Of a DNA stretch of 64,000 bases, positions 17,595-27,470 are shown in pieces (the first letter of the stretch is position 1; each line of letters opens with the position of its first letter). The notes beneath the pieces were generated by a model. It did no database searches. It worked only from the letters and a program-made list of their open reading frames with translations, and had not been told where the DNA came from. Origin of the DNA: Escherichia coli O157:H7 (GTDB lineage Bacteria; Pseudomonadota; Gammaproteobacteria; Enterobacterales; Enterobacteriaceae); NCBI RefSeq assembly GCF_013167455.1, contig NZ_CP038328.1. One strand, written 5' to 3'. Position numbers and translations under genes: made by a program.

Positions 17595-18947
17595 TTATCC
17601 TTCAACCTGCGTCCGGAGCGATGATTTTGTACGTTTATGAATGAGTCCGGCGCTTTCAAAAAGCCAGTACAACAGTTTTGCGATCATCAGACATGCGCCG
17701 AAGACCACGATAAAAAAGACCACGCGTGAGACAAACGAATCCAGCCCTTCACGCGCCAGCACGATCATATTGAAGATCGCCCCAAAGCAGAAACTGTGCA
17801 ATATCGCAGCCTTATAGCGATTAGTTTCGCGGTTGCCCAGCTCATACAGCCAGTCGAACCATTTGATGATCAGTCCAACCACAATCGCCCCGAGCGGGAT
17901 GAACAACGCGCCGCCCATCACCACCAGTGAGCCTATAAGCGTAGGCGAGATCGCCAGTCCGGAGTGGTTATTCAGCACTTCCCAGGTAAAGTAGTTGGCT
18001 GAGTTCAGCACCATACTCGGGCGACCCGGCCACAGCCAGGAAGGGATAAAGACATAGAAATCGCGGACAATTGGCGCCAGGCCCTGGAAGTCGATGTTGT
18101 CGTAGTTCTGCAACAGCAACGCCAGATTCTCCCACGGCGAGAAGGTGTCGCGAGTGAGATAGAGAAACGTATAGAACGCTTCATCGCCGCTCACATTCAT
18201 TCCATAGCGTTTTAGCGCCAGCCAGAACATGCCAACAATCCCCAGCACGCCCGCCGCCGCCAGCATCCACAACGAAATCCAGCCGCGAATAATGCCAATA
18301 AACAGGAAGATAGCGAATGCGATGATGATATTGGCGCGAGTGCCGCCGACAATCATATAAGTCAGCAAGCCAAAGGCGACCGTGCTGACGAGGAAAAACA
18401 GCCACGCTTTGCTGTCCTGGCGCAGAAAGTAGACCACCAGCATCGCCGGGATGAAAAAGTAAAAGAAGCGTTTTAACGCCACGCCGGAGACTTCACTGGA
18501 AAAGATCTGACTGTAGGAGTTAAGCCGGAACAGCAAAAAGCCGTTGTGCATGAAGAAGATGCCGACGCTTACCAGCGCGATACCCATCAGGATCACCCAC
18601 GTAAGATTGGTTTCCACGCGGTTCATGGTAAACAGCGGACGGCGCGGTACATCAGCAACGCGTTTGCGTAGGCGGGTTTTGTAGGTGACGTAGTAAACCG
18701 CGTAGAAGCAGCCCGCAGAAAGCAACGCCTGCAACAGGATTTCTGGCGGCGCGACACCAACATCAAAGCGAAACACCAGCACGCTGGTCAGCGGGAAGCC
18801 AAAGAAAAAGGTGAGCAGAAACAGCAATGAAAAGAATACATTGAAGTTAAAGCGCACACGACGAAACTCAAACCAGGTCAGCGTGGCAATAAACAGCGTG
18901 CAGAGCAGCCAGACAACAAACAGGCCACTGAATTGCAGCAGACTCAT
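17595..18947 (-). CDS. wzyE: ECA polymerase
   Basis: 450-aa polytopic membrane ORF; position between wecF and wecG. Confidence 0.88.
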
Positions 18948-20023
18948 GCGACCTCCCCGGCGGCAATCGCCAACGCCCGCTGCCAGCCTTGTAGATAGTT
19001 AGGGCTAAAGAAGGCAATGGTGTTTTTATCCACCGACGCCAACTGGCGCTGCGCTTCACGCACAATATCCTCGTTGAGATCGTCGGTAGTAAACAGCACC
19101 GGTAAATGCTGTTCCGTCATATCCTGCCAGAACGGATTTTCCCGGTTAAGCACACAAGGAATGCCCGCCTGAATCAGTAAGCACAGCGTACCAATGCCCT
19201 GCTGGCGGGCAAAAATAAAGTAACCAAGATCGCACTGACGAAGTAGCGTCAGATAGGCGTCAAATTCCAGTTTTTCACTCAGAACTTGCAGATTTTCTTC
19301 GCTGAATAACTCCAGCCCCGCCTGACGAACTTCCTCGATGTACGCTTCGTTATGAGGCGGATATCCCATCGGCACCACCACTTTTACCGTATCGCCAAAT
19401 TGCTGATGAACGGCGCGCAAGGCAGCAATATGCTCATTGCTGCGGTCGCCGGAGTTCCCCACCAGAATGGTCATTTTCCCTTCACGTTGCCGATCGTTCG
19501 CCATCGTATTGAGAGAAGCATCCATCCGCGTCGGGAAGTACAGCAGTTCGCCCCGCACCTTTGGGTGCGTTTTGGCAAAAAAGCTCAAATCACCACGGGT
19601 GGCAAATACACAGCCGACTCGCTTTTGCGCCAGGCGACGTAGTGGGTAAAAAAGCTTATATCTCAAGCCACTGGAAAGCTCGTACAGGTCTGCCCCCCAG
19701 ATATGCCAGTAAAACTGGCTGGGCTTAATGCCACCACTCAGCAGAGCCAGCCACAGTGTGGGATTGAACTGACCGTGGAAGAAAAAACGCTGCTGACGGT
19801 TAGCTTTTGCTTTCGCGATGACCGCTTCCGCCAGCGATTTTTTCCCAGGGAAAAATTGCACAGAAAGCGCCGGACAGCTATCACTTAAGCCGTCGTCCTT
19901 GCCAACAACCATAAACTCGCGCGCGTGCTCGCTCGTCGCGGCCAGCGCGTCATTGAAAAACCGCAAAACGGTTCGGTTATGGTGAGGGATATCCGATCCC
20001 AGTACGTGAATCAGTACAGTCAT
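18944..20023 (-). CDS. wecF: TDP-Fuc4NAc:lipid II Fuc4NAc transferase
   Basis: 359-aa [28 protein letters not shown]...; ATGA overlaps with neighbours. Confidence 0.88.
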
Positions 20024-21270
20024 GCCCGCCTACGCCAGAGTAAAAACACGCCACAACAAAGAGAAAAATAGACGATATAGGTTGCCATATATGCCTGTGC
20101 CGCGCCCAGCGCGCCGTGCGTAGGGATTAGCCAGTGGGCAAATACCATCAATAAAGTGAACTGGCTGACTTCCGCCAGAATATAAAACCGCAGTGAAGCT
20201 TTGGCGATCACCAGATAACCAAAGACATAAGCGCCCACTTTTAACACATCACCCACCAACTGCCAGGCAAAGAGATCGCGCATAGCGGTAAATTTATTCG
20301 ACAACAGCAGCCAGATAGCAAAATCACGCAGCAACCAGACGGTAAAACTCGCCGCCGCCACTGCCGGTAAGACGAATTTCAGCGATTTAACCACTTCCCG
20401 GGTGATATCGCGCTTTTCCGTTAGCCGCGACAACGTGGGCAGCAAATATACGCTGAACGATGCCGTAATAAATTGCAGGTAGGCATCGGAAATACTGCTC
20501 ACCCCTTGCCAGATCCCCACCTCATCCCAGCTATACTGCGCCGCCAGCAGTTTACGCATCATGATGTAAGCAACAGGCAAGGTCACCGACGTAATCAACG
20601 TCATGAGCGTAAATTTGCTCAACTGCCCTGCCAGACCGTTATCCCAGCTGGGTTTCAGATAGCTTAACGGGATAGCACCACGCTTAATTAACATGACGGC
20701 GGCAGGAATCACCACCAGCGCGGGAATCAACGCCAGACCCAGCAACGCCCCTTCATATCCGCCCAAACGGTAACTGACGTAGTACGCAAGAACGCCAATC
20801 AAGCTGCCAACAATCAGAGATAACGCATTACCTGCGGCATCGCGAAAGCCTTTCATCAACGCCAGTAACAGGTTGCCCCAGGCGATCCCCATTTGCACCA
20901 GCGCCACTAAACGCACCAGCCCCTGATAGTCGTGATTACCAAACAATCCCAAGCTGATTGGCGCAGCTGCCAGCACAAAAACCAGCGCCATCAGCGTAGA
21001 GAAGCCAAGTACCATCGCTGATGAAGTGCCGACCACGCGGCGCAGCTGTTGCGGATTATCATGGTACTGGGCAACGTATTTGGTTACACCGTTAAAGATG
21101 CCAGCCCCGGCAAGCACGCCGAGCACGGTAATCAACTGGCGGAAATTTGCCGCCAGCCCAAGCCCCGCCGGACCAAATGACACCGCCAGCAACTTACCGA
21201 CCAGTAACCCGGCACCAATCTTGACCAGTGTACTGGCCGCCGTCCACAAGGACGCTTTTGCCAACGACAT
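20020..21270 (-). CDS. wzxE: ECA lipid III flippase (Wzx family)
   Basis: 416-aa polytopic membrane ORF; wec context. Confidence 0.88.
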
Positions 21271-21271
21271 A

Positions 21272-22402
21272 TCAGGAGAAGTAGTTCAACAAAGTCGCAA
21301 TTACCGTACGCTGATTGACGGGCGACAGGTTGTAGAACAGCGGCAGGCGCAGCAGGCGCTCGCTCTCTTTGGTGGTGTAGCGATCTTCACCGTGGAACTC
21401 ACCAAAGCGTTCCCCCGCAGGGCAACCGTGCAGCGGAATGTAATGGAACACCGCCATGATTTCCGCTTCTTTCAGAAAGTTAATCAACGCGCTCCGGTCA
21501 CCAATATCCCGCAGTTTAATGTAAAACATATGCGCGTTCTGCAAGCAGCCATCGGGAATCGACGGCAGCTCGATACGCCCGGCTTTCGCCAGAGGTGCTA
21601 ACGCATCGTAGTAGTTTTGCCACAGCGCCAGACGTTGCTGGTTGATACGATCCGCTGCTTCCAGTTGCGCCCACAGGTACGCAGCTTGCAGATCGGACAT
21701 CAAATAGCTGGAGCCGATATCGCGCCAGGTATATTTATCGACCTGACCACGGAAGAACTGGCTGCGGTTTGTGCCTTTTTCACGGATGATCTCGGCTCGT
21801 TCGATCAACGCTTTATCGTTAATCAGCGTCGCGCCGCCTTCACCGCCCGCCGTGTAGTTTTTGGTTTCATGGAAGCTAAAGCAGCCAATATGACCAATGG
21901 TTCCCAGTGCACGCCCTTTGTAAGTGGACATCACGCCCTGAGCAGCATCTTCCACCACAAACAGATTATGCTTTTTCGCCAACGCCATAATGGTGTCCAT
22001 TTCGCAGGCCACGCCCGCGTAATGCACCGGCACGATAACGCGCGTTTTGTCGGTGATCGCCGCTTCAATCAACGTTTCGTCGATGTTCATGGTGTCCGGG
22101 CGAACATCCACAAAAACGATTTTTGCGCCACGCAGCACAAAGGCATTGGCGGTGGAGACAAAGGTGTAGCTCGGCATGATCACTTCATCGCCAGGCTGGA
22201 TATCGAGCAGCAGCGCCGCCATCTCCAGCGAAGCGGTGCAGGACGGCGTCAGTAACACTTTGGCGCTGCCAAAACGTTGCTCCAGCCACTGCTGGCAGCG
22301 ACGGGTAAAACCGCCATCGCCACACAGTTTGCCGCTACCCATTGCCGACTGCATATAGTCGAGTTCGGTTCCCACCACCGGCGGTGCGTTAAATGGAATC
22401 AT
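21272..22402 (-). CDS. wecE: dTDP-4-amino-4,6-dideoxygalactose transaminase (DegT/PLP family)
   Basis: 376-aa ORF MIPFNAPPVVGTELDYMQSAM...; PLP aminotransferase fold motifs. Confidence 0.9.
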   Translation of the reverse strand: MIPFNAPPVVGTELDYMQSAMGSGKLCGDGGFTRRCQQWLEQRFGSAKVLLTPSCTASLEMAALLLDIQPGDEVIMPSYTFVSTANAFVLRGAKIVFVDVRPDTMNIDETLIEAAITDKTRVIVPVHYAGVACEMDTIMALAKKHNLFVVEDAAQGVMSTYKGRALGTIGHIGCFSFHETKNYTAGGEGGATLINDKALIERAEIIREKGTNRSQFFRGQVDKYTWRDIGSSYLMSDLQAAYLWAQLEAADRINQQRLALWQNYYDALAPLAKAGRIELPSIPDGCLQNAHMFYIKLRDIGDRSALINFLKEAEIMAVFHYIPLHGCPAGERFGEFHGEDRYTTKESERLLRLPLFYNLSPVNQRTVIATLLNYFS

Positions 22403-22406
22403 GTGA

Positions 22407-23081
22407 TCACCTGTATAACCAGTACGCGGTGCTTTCTACATTCGCACCACTTTGTATGTATCGTTTAAGCGCGGCGGTGTTGCCCATTTGGGTCGCCACC
22501 CGCAAAGTTGTTTTACCGCGAGCATACGCCCAGTTTAGCGCCGTTTGCATCAGCTCAGCACCTGCACCGCGTCCAGCCAGCAGGCCAATTCGCGCATCTG
22601 TAGCATTGAGTTCCCGTAAAGAGACATAACCGCGAATATCGCCGGACGCCGCACGTAAAATCAGACATTGATGATCAAAGGTGCCGCGCACGGCATTTTC
22701 AATCCACTGTGCATAAAAGCGACTGCTGGCGTCAGGCGCATACCACGGCGCACGAAAACGGCTTTGCGCAAATGCGGCGCTGGCTAACTGACGTAATGCG
22801 GGAATATCGGTCTCTTGTGCCACTACAGCACCGCTATCACTGGCATTGTTCACGGGTAGCGCCAAATCAACTTCACCTTCTACCAGGGAGAATCCCAGCT
22901 GTTGCAGGGCATCCAGTTCCCCCGTATTTGATGCCGCAATTTTGGCCTGCACCCGTGACCACGGCGCTAACGCGTCTGGCGTCAGGAACGGTGCTTCAGA
23001 CGTAATGCGCACGATGGCGCTGTTAACACCAAAGAAGGCGTTTTCCCAGGTTAGTGGCTCAATACTGGCGCGGACGGGCAC
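22407..23081 (-). CDS. wecD: dTDP-fucosamine acetyltransferase (GNAT)
   Basis: 224-aa ORF; overlaps rffH 3' end by 23 nt; true start not verified. Confidence 0.8.
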
Positions 23082-23940
23082 GAAGTAACTCCAGCAGATA
23101 TTGGCCGTAGCCAGTTTTCGCTAATGAACTGGCAGCACGCTTCACACCCTCGTCATCGAGCCAGCCGTTACGCCAGGCGATCTCTTCCAGGCAGGCAATC
23201 TTAAAGCCCTGGCGTTTTTCCACCGTCTGTACAAAGGTGCTGGCTTCAATCAGGCTGTCGTGAGTGCCAGTGTCCAGCCAGGCAAATCCGCGCCCGAGCA
23301 GTTCAACGGTCAGGTTGCCCGCCTCGAGGTACATCTGGTTGATGGAGGTAATCTCCAGTTCACCACGCTCCGACGGCTTCACCTGCTTTGCGTACTCCAC
23401 GACTTTACTGTCGTAGAAATAAAGCCCGGTCACCGCCCAGTTTGATTTCGGCTGTTTTGGCTTTTCTTCCAGCGAGATAGCGCGGAAATTATCGTCAAAC
23501 TCCACCACGCCAAAGCGTTCCGGGTCCATCACCTGATAGCCAAAAACCGTCGCCACTTCCGTGCGCGCCGCAACATGACGCAGCTTCGGACTGAAGCCCT
23601 GACCGAAGAAGATGTTATCGCCCAGCACCAGACAAGAAGGTTCACCATTAAGGAAGGTTTCACCGATGATAAAGGCCTGCGCCAGACCGTCCGGGCTGGG
23701 CTGTTCGGCATATTCCAGCTGGATACCGAACTCACTACCATCGCCCAGCAGGCGCTGGAAATAACCTTTATCTTCCGGCGTAGTGATGATGAGAATTTCG
23801 CGGATACCGGCCAGCATCAGCACCGACAGCGGATAGTAAATCATTGGCTTATCGTAAATCGGCAACAGTTGCTTCGATACGCCGCGCGTAATCGGATGCA
23901 ATCGGGTACCGGAACCGCCCGCCAGGATAATACCTTTCAT
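23059..23940 (-). CDS. rffH: Glucose-1-phosphate thymidylyltransferase
   Basis: 293-aa [21 protein letters not shown]... (nucleotidyltransferase G-loop). Confidence 0.92.
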
Positions 23941-23958
23941 GTTTGCCTCCGCTGAAAA

Positions 23959-25026
23959 TTAGCCTTTCAGACCTAAACGCTCGCCCTGATAGCTGCCGTC
24001 CTGCACCTGCTTCCTCCAGCTTTCATTAGCCAGATACCACTGCACCGTTTTACGCATTCCACTTTCAAAGGTTTCCTGCGGCAGCCAGCCAAGTTCACGG
24101 GCAATTTTCGAAGCATCAATGGCATAGCGCAGATCATGCCCCGGACGGTCAGCGACAAAGGTGATCAAGTCACGATAATGCACCACGCCTTGCGGCTTGT
24201 TCGGAGCCAGTTCTTCCAGCAGCTCGCAAATGGTTTCCACAACATCGAGATTCTTACGCTCGTTGTGACCACCAATATTATAGGTTTCACCGACTTTCCC
24301 GGTGGTCGCCACGCAATACAGCGCGCGGGCGTGATCTTCAACATACAGCCAGTCACGGATTTGCTGCCCGTTGCCATATACCGGTAGCGGTTTACCCGCC
24401 AGCGCGTTGAGGATCATCAGCGGGATCAGTTTTTCCGGAAAGTGGTAAGGACCGTAGTTATTCGAGCAGTTGGTGATAAGCGTTGGCAGACCATAGGTTC
24501 GCAGCCAGGCGCGCACCAGATGGTCGCTGCTGGCTTTTGACGCGGAATAAGGGCTGCTCGGCGCATACGGCGTGGTTTCGGTGAAGAAATCATCCGTCGA
24601 GTGCAGGTCACCATATACTTCGTCAGTGGAGATATGATGAAAACGGAACGCTGATTTTTTATCTTCCGTCAGCGCATTCCAGTAAGCCCGCGCCGCTTCA
24701 AGCAATGTATAAGTCCCGACAATGTTGGTTTCAATAAACGCTGCCGGGCCGTCAATAGAACGGTCAACATGGCTTTCGGCTGCCAGATGCATGACACAGT
24801 CTGGCTGATGCTCAGTGAATACGCGCGCCAGTTCTGCCCGATCGCAGATATCAACTTTCTCAAAGGCAAAGCGCTCGCTTTGCGCGACCGGTGCCAGCGA
24901 CATCAGGTTTCCGGCGTAGGTCAGCTTATCGACCACTACCACCGCGTCGCTCGTTTCGTTGATGATATAACGCACCAGCGCCGAGCCAATAAACCCGGCA
25001 CCGCCTGTTATCAGAATCTTTCTCAT
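23959..25026 (-). CDS. rffG: dTDP-glucose 4,6-dehydratase
   Basis: 355-aa [22 protein letters not shown]... (Rossmann GxxGxxG, SDR family). Confidence 0.92.
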
Positions 25027-26288
25027 CAGCGCCAGACTCCTTTAGCATCGACGACATACTGCTGATGGACATTGTCGCCATTGATAACTTTGAACTGACT
25101 ATGATCGACCAGCATCACCAGCACGTCTGCCGTTGCCAGCGCCTCGTCAAGCTGCGCCAGAGTACAAAGCCCGGTCAGTTTTTTCGGCAACTGGTGGATG
25201 TTAGGCTCAACAACCAGAGTTTCGCCGCTATGCCACTGGGCGATCAGTTCAGCGATTTCCATCGCCGGGCTTTCGCGCAGGTCATCAATATTCGGTTTAA
25301 ACGCCAGACCAAAGCAGGCGATTTTCAGTTCACTGGCGCGTTTATCGGTAGCCGCCAGGCAATCAGCCACCGCCGCTTTCACCTGATCGATAACCCAGAA
25401 CGGTTTGTGATCGTTCACTTCGCGCGCGGTACGGATAAGCCGCGCCTGCTGGGGGTTCTGTGCCACGATAAACCACGGATCAACAGCAATGCAGTGACCG
25501 CCCACGCCAGGGCCAGGCTGAAGAATATTAACGCGAGGGTGACGATTCGCCAGGCGAATCAGTTCCCAGACGTTAATCCCCTGATCGGCACAAATCAGCG
25601 ACAATTCATTAGCAAAAGCGATATTCACATCGCGGAAGCTGTTTTCGGTGAGCTTACACATTTCCGCCGTCCGCGAGTTAGTGACGACACACTCACCTTC
25701 GAGGAAAATTTTGTACAGTTCGCTGGCGCGGGCCGAACAAACCGGCGTCATACCACCAATCACGCGATCGTTTTTAATCAGCTCGACCATAACCTGGCCC
25801 GGTAACACGCGTTCCGGGCAGTAAGCAATGTTGACGTCCGCCTGCTCGCCCACCTGCTGTGGGAAAGTGAGATCCGGACGCATCTCTGCTAACCATTCTG
25901 CCATCTTCTCGGTTGACCCCACCGGCGAGGTGGATTCAAGGATCACCAGCGCGCCTTTTTTCAGCACTGGCGCAATGGAGCGAGCAGCCGATTCAACGTA
26001 GGTCATATCTGGCTCATGATCGCCTTTAAACGGCGTGGGTACAGCAATCAGCCAGGCATCCGCTTCAACTGGCGTCGTGCTCGCTCGTAAAAAACCGCCT
26101 TCTACGGCAGTTTTTACTACGCTCGCCAAATCAGGCTCGACGATATGGATTTCGCCACGATTGATGGTATCAACCGCGTGTTGGTTGATATCGACACCAA
26201 TCACCTGTTTTTGCCGTGAGGCAAACGCTGCTGCTGTAGGCAGCCCGATGTAACCCAGTCCGATAACAGAAATGGTCGCAAAACTCAT
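25026..26288 (-). CDS. wecC: UDP-N-acetyl-D-mannosamine dehydrogenase
   Basis: 420-aa [26 protein letters not shown]... (UDP-sugar dehydrogenase family). Confidence 0.92.
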
Positions 26289-27415
26289 AGTGATATCCGA
26301 TTATTTTTTAACGCTTCCAGAATGCGAGAGCATGCCTGACCATCACCATACGGGTTATGGGCGCGGCTCATAGTTTGATATTCGTTTTCGTCTTTTAAAA
26401 GACGCGTCACTTCCTCGACAATTCGCTGCTTATCCGTGCCTACCAGACGCACCGTACCCGCCGTCACCGCTTCCGGACGCTCAGTGGTATCGCGCATCAC
26501 CAGCACCGGTTTCCCCAGCGAAGGCGCTTCTTCCTGAATGCCGCCTGAGTCGGTCAAAATCAGCCAGGCGTGGTTCATCAGCCAGACAAACGGTAAATAC
26601 TCCTGAGGATCGATCAGAATGACATTTTTCACATGCCCCAGAATGCGATTGACCGGCTCTCTGACGTTCGGGTTGAGATGCACCGGATAGACAATCTGGA
26701 TGTCCTGGTGCGTGGTGGCGATGTCTGCCAGCGCGTGGCAGATTTCTTCAAAGCCACGACCGAAGCTTTCACGCCTGTGACCGGTCACCAGAATCATCTT
26801 TTTATCGGGGTCGATAAACGGGTAATTTGCCGCAAGTTCTGAACGCAGCGTGTCGCTGCTCATCACCTGGTCACGCACCCATAACAGTGCATCAATGACT
26901 GTATTACCGGTAATGAAGATTCGGCTATCTGCAACGTTTTCACGCAGCAAGTTTTGCCGGGAAGTTTCGGTTGGAGAGAAATGATACATCGCCAGATGCC
27001 CGGTCAATGTACGGTTAGCCTCTTCCGGCCACGGCGAATAGAGATCGCCCGTGCGTAAACCAGCCTCAACGTGACCAACAGGAATACGCTGATAAAACGC
27101 CGCCAGGCTGGTTGCCAGCGTCGTCGTTGTGTCGCCGTGAACCAGCACGACGTCTGGTTTGAACTCGGCAAGAATAGGTTTTAGCCCTTCCAGAATCCGA
27201 CAGGTTATCTCTGTCAGGCCCTGTCCTGGCTGCATTATGTTGAGATCGTAGTCAGGTACAATGGAAAAGAGTTTCAGCACCTGATCGAGCATCTCCCGAT
27301 GCTGCGCAGTGACGCAAACTTTAGCCTCAAAAAAAGGATCTTTTGCCAACGCATGCACCAACGGAGCCATCTTGATGGCTTCCGGGCGCGTACCAAATAC
27401 AGTCAGTACTTTCAC
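26285..27415 (-). CDS. wecB: UDP-N-acetylglucosamine 2-epimerase, GTG start
   Basis: Translation (V)[19 protein letters not shown]...; track ORF extends to 27457; GTG at 27413-27415 matches the known N-terminus as I recall. Confidence 0.85.
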
Positions 27416-27470
27416 ATCGATTCTCTTCGAATAAGCGGCGAGCGCCTTTGCGCTCACCGCAGCAGTGTTG

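Follow-up and report, generated by a model that had tools for sequence, protein, structure and literature searches.

Does wecD, a gene of the wec operon, begin inside the coding sequence of its upstream neighbor rffH, or has its start been placed too far upstream? The question arises in a 64,000-nucleotide stretch of Escherichia coli O157:H7 DNA (contig NZ_CP038328.1; hereafter the window), in which the wec operon for enterobacterial common antigen (ECA) lies on the minus strand. The rffH gene (positions 23940 to 23059, minus strand), the rmlA paralogue of the ECA cluster, encodes a glucose-1-phosphate thymidylyltransferase of 293 amino acids and is named rfbA by PGAP. It is followed by wecD, also called rffC (23081 to 22407, minus strand), which has a GTG start and encodes a dTDP-4-amino-4,6-dideoxy-D-galactose (dTDP-fucosamine) acetyltransferase of 224 amino acids. 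Both are open reading frames and PGAP coding sequences, rffH having been identified from its translation as well. The 23 nt that the two genes share (23081 to 23059, minus strand; GTGCCCGTCCGCGCCAGTATTGA) can be read directly: in one frame they encode the RffH tail (R)ARPRQY and its stop codon, and in the frame one base downstream WecD residues M1 to I7. The wecD GTG (23081 to 23079, minus strand) lies 20 nt upstream of where the rffH stop codon TGA (23061 to 23059, minus strand) begins, and the wecD frame reads this stop within its codons I7 and E8 (ATT GAG, of the form ATT GAR). We conclude, with a probability of about 0.88, that wecD begins at GTG 23081, that the 23 nt are shared in two frames, that initiation is directed by a Shine–Dalgarno sequence inside the 3′ end of rffH and that constraint on both products keeps the overlap in place.

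PGAP calls the same two coding sequences with the same 23-nt overlap in O157:H7 and in K-12, the O157:H7 record used for comparison being that of strain PV15-279, which is 100% identical to the window over the 1.1 kb tested. The K-12 junction sequence is likewise identical to that of the window, and a 71-mer centered on the junction was matched exactly in 5314 of the 5405 complete E. coli genomes carrying it. The curated K-12 annotation lists the rffH-rffC pair at −23 (Table S2 of Huber et al. 2023, PMC10666635). The 11 junctions of the wec/rff genes have spacings of −4, −1, −4, −4, +1, +2, +4, +11, +18, +55, and −23 nt. A preliminary description of the window, made from the sequence alone, had presented most of these junctions as tight overlaps of 1–4 nt, with rffH/wecD as the exception. 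The short overlaps that it named are correct, namely wecB/wecC (−4, 26285 to 26288), wecC/rffG (−1, 25026), wzxE/wecF (−4, 20020 to 20023), and wecF/wzyE (−4, 18944 to 18947), but four of 11 is not most, and the statement was too strong. Elsewhere in the operon, the longest reading frame of wecB opens at GTG 27457 (390 aa), and PGAP places the start at GTG 27415 (376 aa), so that the two calls differ over positions 27415 to 27457 of the minus strand.

Local sequence features favor the annotated wecD start. The wecD frame is closed upstream by a TAG (23123 to 23121, minus strand), and no ATG, GTG, or TTG occurs in this frame between that stop and GTG 23081, which is thus the first such codon available. 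A GGAG Shine–Dalgarno motif (23092 to 23089, minus strand), embedded in Leu-Glu codons of rffH, precedes the GTG with a 7-nt spacer. Its predicted duplex with the 3′ end of 16S rRNA has a free energy of −5.9 kcal/mol, mid-range among 12 wec genes, and on this predicted pairing the GTG qualifies as a canonical Shine–Dalgarno-led initiation site, with the anti-Shine–Dalgarno-matching motif 5–9 nt before the start codon. The best value for any other candidate start in the first 45 codons is −2.8 kcal/mol. Stronger matches appear only from codon 48 on, before poor starts (ATT, CTG) or TTG codon 73; starts in this region would remove W12, F16, and F17 from the protein. The first in-frame ATG lies near codon 187. 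The supplements of three studies, Nakahigashi 2016 (TetRP; PMC4909307), TRAINSPOTTER 2026 (PMC13245402), and Giess 2017 (PMC5576327), list no entry for wecD, rffC, or b3790.

The protein sequence supports the full-length call. Among 1.84 billion cluster representatives searched, residue 1 of WecD homologues with 30–55% identity and lengths of 225–247 aa aligned to residues 1–12 of the query. The preliminary description had proposed an alignment of WecD orthologs as a check, and this bore out the annotated start: across 36 sequences, down to 31% identity, the annotated starts share one column, no sequence departs from W12 or F17, and F16 is present in at least 90%. WecD scores 357.3 bits with the NF008212 equivalog model, whose cut-off is 219, residues 1–224 aligning to profile positions 1–231 of 232, and is a member of that family over its whole length. 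It is also 98–99% identical to the chains of PDB 2FS5 and 2FT0, which cover residues 2–224. In the crystal structure, residues 3–69 are ordered as an N-terminal domain (PMC4964394). As the crystallized protein was a recombinant construct, the structure speaks for the fold of residues 3–69 and not for the cellular start of translation.

We extended the comparison to one genome per species, using 11 closer sequences as the query, and obtained 80 Enterobacteriaceae loci with 64–95% WecD identity. Flanking genes assigned by tblastn divide these loci into three contexts: A (n = 44), in which rffG-rffH-wecD are arranged as in E. coli; B (n = 34), in which wecC adjoins wecD and rffG-rffH are absent; and C (n = 2), with rffG next to wecD and, in one of the two species, an rffH remnant. 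All 44 context A species have a start codon in the column of GTG 23081 (43 GTG and one ATG) and an rffH/wecD overlap of exactly 23 nt; the rffH stop codon is TGA in 41 and TAA in three. Three distant relatives with 41–48% WecD identity, retrieved via their exact proteins (one is GCA_000517425.1), again have 23-nt overlaps (3/3), with rffH at locus positions 642–1523, the wecD start at 1501, and GTG (n = 1) or ATG (n = 2) as the start codon. Over all 47 rffH-wecD junctions, the start column thus holds GTG 44 times and ATG three times. The preliminary description had recorded a 23-nt out-of-frame overlap at 23059 to 23081; its coordinates are exact, PGAP agrees, and since the overlap is exactly 23 nt in every one of the 47 species with rffH upstream, it is neither a chance arrangement nor an annotation artefact.

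The context B loci (L006, L012, L017, L021, L026-L028, L031, L033, L035, L036, L038, L045, L046, L053-L056, L063, L065-L068, L070, L071, L073-L080, and L082, with the junction near locus position 1500) show where wecD begins when rffH is absent. In most of these 34 species the start is the same codon or within one codon of it. Their junctions are GTGA or TTGA overlaps (−4), −1 overlaps, or gaps of 9–78 nt, the latter often followed by ATG. At the gap junctions an in-frame stop occurs 3–26 codons upstream of the wecD start, and in some species there is no room for another start because the stop is only 3–5 codons away. These wecC-wecD junctions share with the rffH-wecD junctions the position of the wecD start and the WecD N-terminus, and differ from them in spacing and in a relaxed constraint on the sequence. 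Remnants of rffH are recognizable in L028 and L033 (gap of +78) and in L044, which points to deletion of rffGH and against ancestral absence in those lineages.

Several loci in the comparison have peculiarities of their own. In L008 (Citrobacter koseri NCTC10786), rffH appears as two overlapping tblastn segments around positions 1332–1381 (RffH residues 1–247 and 231–293), as does wecE at 2340–2575 (WecE residues 1–130 and 53–376); the split genes suggest frameshifts, small duplications, or assembly errors. L062 (CACSKA010000013.1) is titled ‘Chryseobacterium sp. 18061’ and carries an Enterobacteriaceae-type rffG-rffH-wecD-wecE cluster with an RffH 94% identical to that of E. coli; the assembly has probably been mislabelled or contaminated. 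Two of the distant relatives, L084 (2228–2241) and L086 (2201/2231–2244), have a WecD that is longer at the C-terminus (246–247 aa, tail ...GxHDSI), and their wecD overlaps wecE by about 14 nt at its 3′ end. The corresponding E. coli genes are separated by a 4-nt gap (22403 to 22406), making this a second variable junction of the operon.

Selection on both reading frames is visible within the overlap. It was assessed in 43 context A species (the one with a disrupted rffH was left out), whose pairwise DNA identity over the aligned rffH and wecD 5′ region is 78% at the median and never below 72%. When a 23-nt window is slid along rffH and the first 60 codons of wecD, giving 1040 positions, the overlap is the most conserved of them, with a pi of 0.067 against a median of 0.193. 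All seven wecD third positions inside the overlap are invariant, compared with one of 60 downstream; for rffH, three of seven third positions are invariant inside the overlap and 12 of 286 outside it (binomial P = 0.002, uncorrected for phylogeny even though a single tree underlies every column, and based on 7 sites only). The three invariant sites that are silent in rffH are the T of the wecD GTG and the second positions of WecD codons A5 and I7. At the Arg codon containing the GTG, 43 of the 44 context A species have CGT and the other has GAT, which turns the wecD start into ATG; at other sites of rffH, Arg codons are free to be CGT, CGC, CGG, or CGA. When rffH is upstream, the third-position diversity of wecD codons 2–7 is 0.000, compared with 0.570 in the 34 species without it.

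The Shine–Dalgarno sequence is conserved in the same manner. Its GGA core is invariant in all 43 context A species (43/43) and is present also in the junctions of the three distant relatives. At −11, the G occupies an rffH third position at which a change would be synonymous, yet it is invariant while neighboring third positions vary. In the distant relatives the RffH residue encoded at this codon changes (Leu, Met, Gln, Glu), and the codon always ends in G.

The two proteins do not contribute equally to this constraint. First and second codon positions of rffH in the overlap are near-invariant, and the variable sites are rffH-silent changes that alter WecD residues 2, 3, 4, and 6, which indicates that the RffH tail dominates, WecD adding constraint at its start codon, A5, and I7. 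Much of the invariance in the overlap is therefore imposed by the RffH tail and not by WecD. Both frames are nevertheless under selection in the 23 nt, which is a genuine co-directional dual-coding overlap.

The part of RffH encoded in the overlap lies at the edge of the protein family. RffH is a member of the TIGR01207 rmlA family (530.2 bits, cut-off 360.65), residues 2–286 aligning to profile positions 1–285 of 286, and PDB 1MC3 matches residues 1–293. The rmlA model and the solved RmlA structures align only up to residue 286–287, and the overlap encodes precisely the six to seven residues that follow, (R)ARPRQY. Although residues 288–293, ARPRQY (23079 to 23062, minus strand), are outside the RmlA core, RPRQY does not vary in any of the 47 species with rffH. 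A CAG to TAG change in rffH would be silent in wecD and would shorten the overlap to 17 nt; it was never seen among these 47 species. Taken together, the invariance outside the core and the lack of this change suggest that the RffH tail may have a function of its own. Overlaps of this kind are usually proposed to originate when an upstream gene reads into the downstream gene as far as the next stop in its own frame (PMC10666635), and we infer that an rffH stop built from wecD codons I7 and E8 fits such a read-through origin.

The rffH/wecD overlap is already known and annotated and is of an ordinary kind, without a new mechanism. Huber et al. (2023, PMC10666635) found long phase-1 overlaps (−8, −11, −14, and so on) to be several-fold commoner than phase-2 overlaps, for the reason, given by those authors, that no point mutation can turn them into −4 or −1 overlaps. 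The pair belongs to this long phase-1 class, with two real genes on one strand, an overlap of 23 = 3 × 7 + 2 nt, and no route by point mutation to −4 or −1. It does not differ from the class in kind, adding a length fixed at 23 nt across the order and an upstream protein tail outside the family core. Short overlaps of the ATGA or TGATG type, such as trpB-trpA and, in the wec operon, wecB/wecC, wecC/rffG, wzxE/wecF, and wecF/wzyE, resemble it in being co-directional, within one operon, and with the downstream ribosome-binding site in the upstream gene. In rffH/wecD, by contrast, the start lies 20 nt before the stop, so that the two codons are not interlocked and their spacing is beyond the −8 to +6 range in which reinitiation is reported to be efficient. 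The table of Huber et al. includes, within its first ~90 numbered K-12 pairs, ~70 of them co-directional, ftsI-murE at −14, thiP-thiQ at −17, and thiB-thiP at −25 (PMC10666635), which makes a 23-nt overlap unremarkable in E. coli. These pairs are like rffH/wecD in overlap length and in joining established genes, and differ from it in pathway. What the present comparison adds is the fixation of the overlap at 23 nt across the order and a clean dual-coding signature.

Could wecD nonetheless have been mis-called, the overlap being unreal and the true start lying downstream, as the preliminary description offered as one option? Points in favor are that GTG is a weaker start codon than ATG and that long overlaps are sometimes the result of start mis-annotation (Palleja 2008, as cited in PMC10666635). 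A further one is that the older TIGR02382 model begins at residue 44. This legacy wecD_rffC model spans residues 44–224 and so corresponds to the 181-aa form that starts at GTG 22952, which we take to be an early annotation. The candidates themselves fare poorly, all three being without a proper Shine–Dalgarno sequence. GTG codon 24 (23012 to 23010, minus strand) has none (−2.8 kcal/mol at 14-nt spacing) and would remove the invariant W12 and F17, the near-invariant F16, and part of the ordered N-terminal domain; GTG codon 44 (22952 to 22950, minus strand), which yields the 181-aa, non-overlapping product, has a weak one (−2.2 kcal/mol) and would lose these residues together with most of the ordered N-terminal domain (3–69). 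ATT codon 7 (23063 to 23061, minus strand), which would form an ATTGA junction with a −5 overlap, again has none (+0.6 kcal/mol). This last start would keep the conserved aromatic residues and the N-terminal domain, and could be imagined as a reinitiation start; it was rejected as the main start, codon 7 varying across species (ATT, GTT, CTT, TTA, CTG, and GTG, for I, V, and L) while codon 1 stays a start codon, and residues 1–6 being coding. All 47 overlapping junctions have a start codon at codon 1, as do most junctions without overlap, some of them with ATG straight after an in-frame stop, and the T of the GTG is invariant despite being silent in rffH. A downstream start is thus very improbable; GTG 23081 is the true wecD start, and the alternatives, including the legacy 181-aa form, are rejected.

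Less probable still, to the point of being negligible, is a programmed +1 frameshift within the overlap that would give an RffH-WecD fusion. In its favor, wecD is read in the +1 frame of rffH, and +1 shifts like that of prfB take place at stop codons, one of which closes the overlap. The 23 nt, however, hold no slippery or shift-prone motif, no Shine–Dalgarno sequence stands at a prfB-type distance from the stop, and neither an Rfam element nor significant RNA structure was found. RffH and WecD have both been crystallized and are functional as separate chains, and wecD has kept in all species a start codon that a fusion would not need. A third possibility, that of a dedicated coupling, concerns not the start but the ribosomes that use it: WecD would be made mainly by ribosomes that end RffH at the UGA and return to the GUG, about 20 nt back, by termination-reinitiation or 70S scanning, so that its synthesis would be locked to that of RffH. 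The exact conservation of the 23-nt spacing over the order would suit such a device, as would the membership of the genes in one pathway and the −4 and −1 junctions of neighboring wec genes. Adhin and van Duin reportedly found in 1990 that a ribosome that has terminated can get to a start codon nearby on either side. The mechanisms are reviewed in PMC12548453. The same review summarizes a reporter series of Tian and Salis in which, according to that summary, coupling falls as the overlap grows and is absent at −25. Reinitiation has also been described as needing a distance of about −8 to +6 nt, the range used for termination-reinitiation (TeRe) pairs (PMC10666635), and rffH/wecD, at −23, lies outside it. 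In addition, wecD has its own conserved Shine–Dalgarno sequence, the dual-coding constraint alone accounts for the exact conservation, and species without rffH express wecD from varied junctions (−4, −1, and +9 to +78), which indicates that the −23 geometry is not required for WecD function. We regard dedicated coupling as unlikely. The unusual coupling that the preliminary description held out as its other option is unneeded and unsupported, given the Shine–Dalgarno sequence at ideal spacing, the lack of significant RNA structure, and a phase that belongs to a described class.

From the coordinates, start identity, conservation, and dual-coding constraint established above, we infer both a mode of initiation and a reason why the overlap has persisted. 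The predicted ribosome-binding site of wecD (GGAG, 7-nt spacer, GUG) lies in the last codons of rffH, and ribosomes most likely load there in the ordinary way, directed by the Shine–Dalgarno sequence on the polycistronic wec mRNA. While translating rffH, ribosomes would hold the site unfolded, and those finishing rffH would have to occlude it transiently. A minority may reinitiate at wecD after terminating 20 nt downstream; with coupling absent at −25 and an efficient window of about −8 to +6, this contribution is expected to be minor at best. No RNA structure masking the wecD start was predicted (minimum free energy −33.4 kcal/mol, z = −0.28, no different from shuffled sequences). Near the junction there are no promoter-like sites (0), and the one terminator-like site, inside rffH, is within the expectation from shuffled sequences; no Rfam family was detected in positions 21000–25000 at E ≤ 1. 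The persistence of the overlap across Enterobacterales probably has three sources. Each base is under constraint from the RffH tail, from the start and N-terminus of WecD, or from both; overlaps in the phase −8, −11, ... −23 have no route by point mutation to the favored −4 or −1; and nothing would select against the overlap.

The 224-aa WecD call and the overlap are correct, which means that the annotation of the window can be trusted here and that the 181-aa, non-overlapping form should not be revived. Pipelines relying on TIGR02382 could under-call the WecD N-terminus, a region that NF008212, spanning the full 224 aa, includes. Beyond annotation hygiene the importance of the finding is small. 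The junction is a tidy textbook case of dual-coding constraint, as species that have lost rffGH no longer show the constraint. It is also conceivable, though we consider it doubtful and slightly less probable than dedicated coupling, that the length stays at exactly 23 nt not through dual-coding inertia alone but also through tuning of expression by the geometry itself, with ribosomes finishing rffH occluding the GUG or reinitiating backwards at it and thereby fixing the RffH:WecD ratio. If true, the geometry would be a functional device for backward reinitiation or occlusion at long range, over a distance for which coupling is not predicted by current models. The rffH/wecD pair also offers a natural test of whether backward reinitiation over about 20 nt can work.
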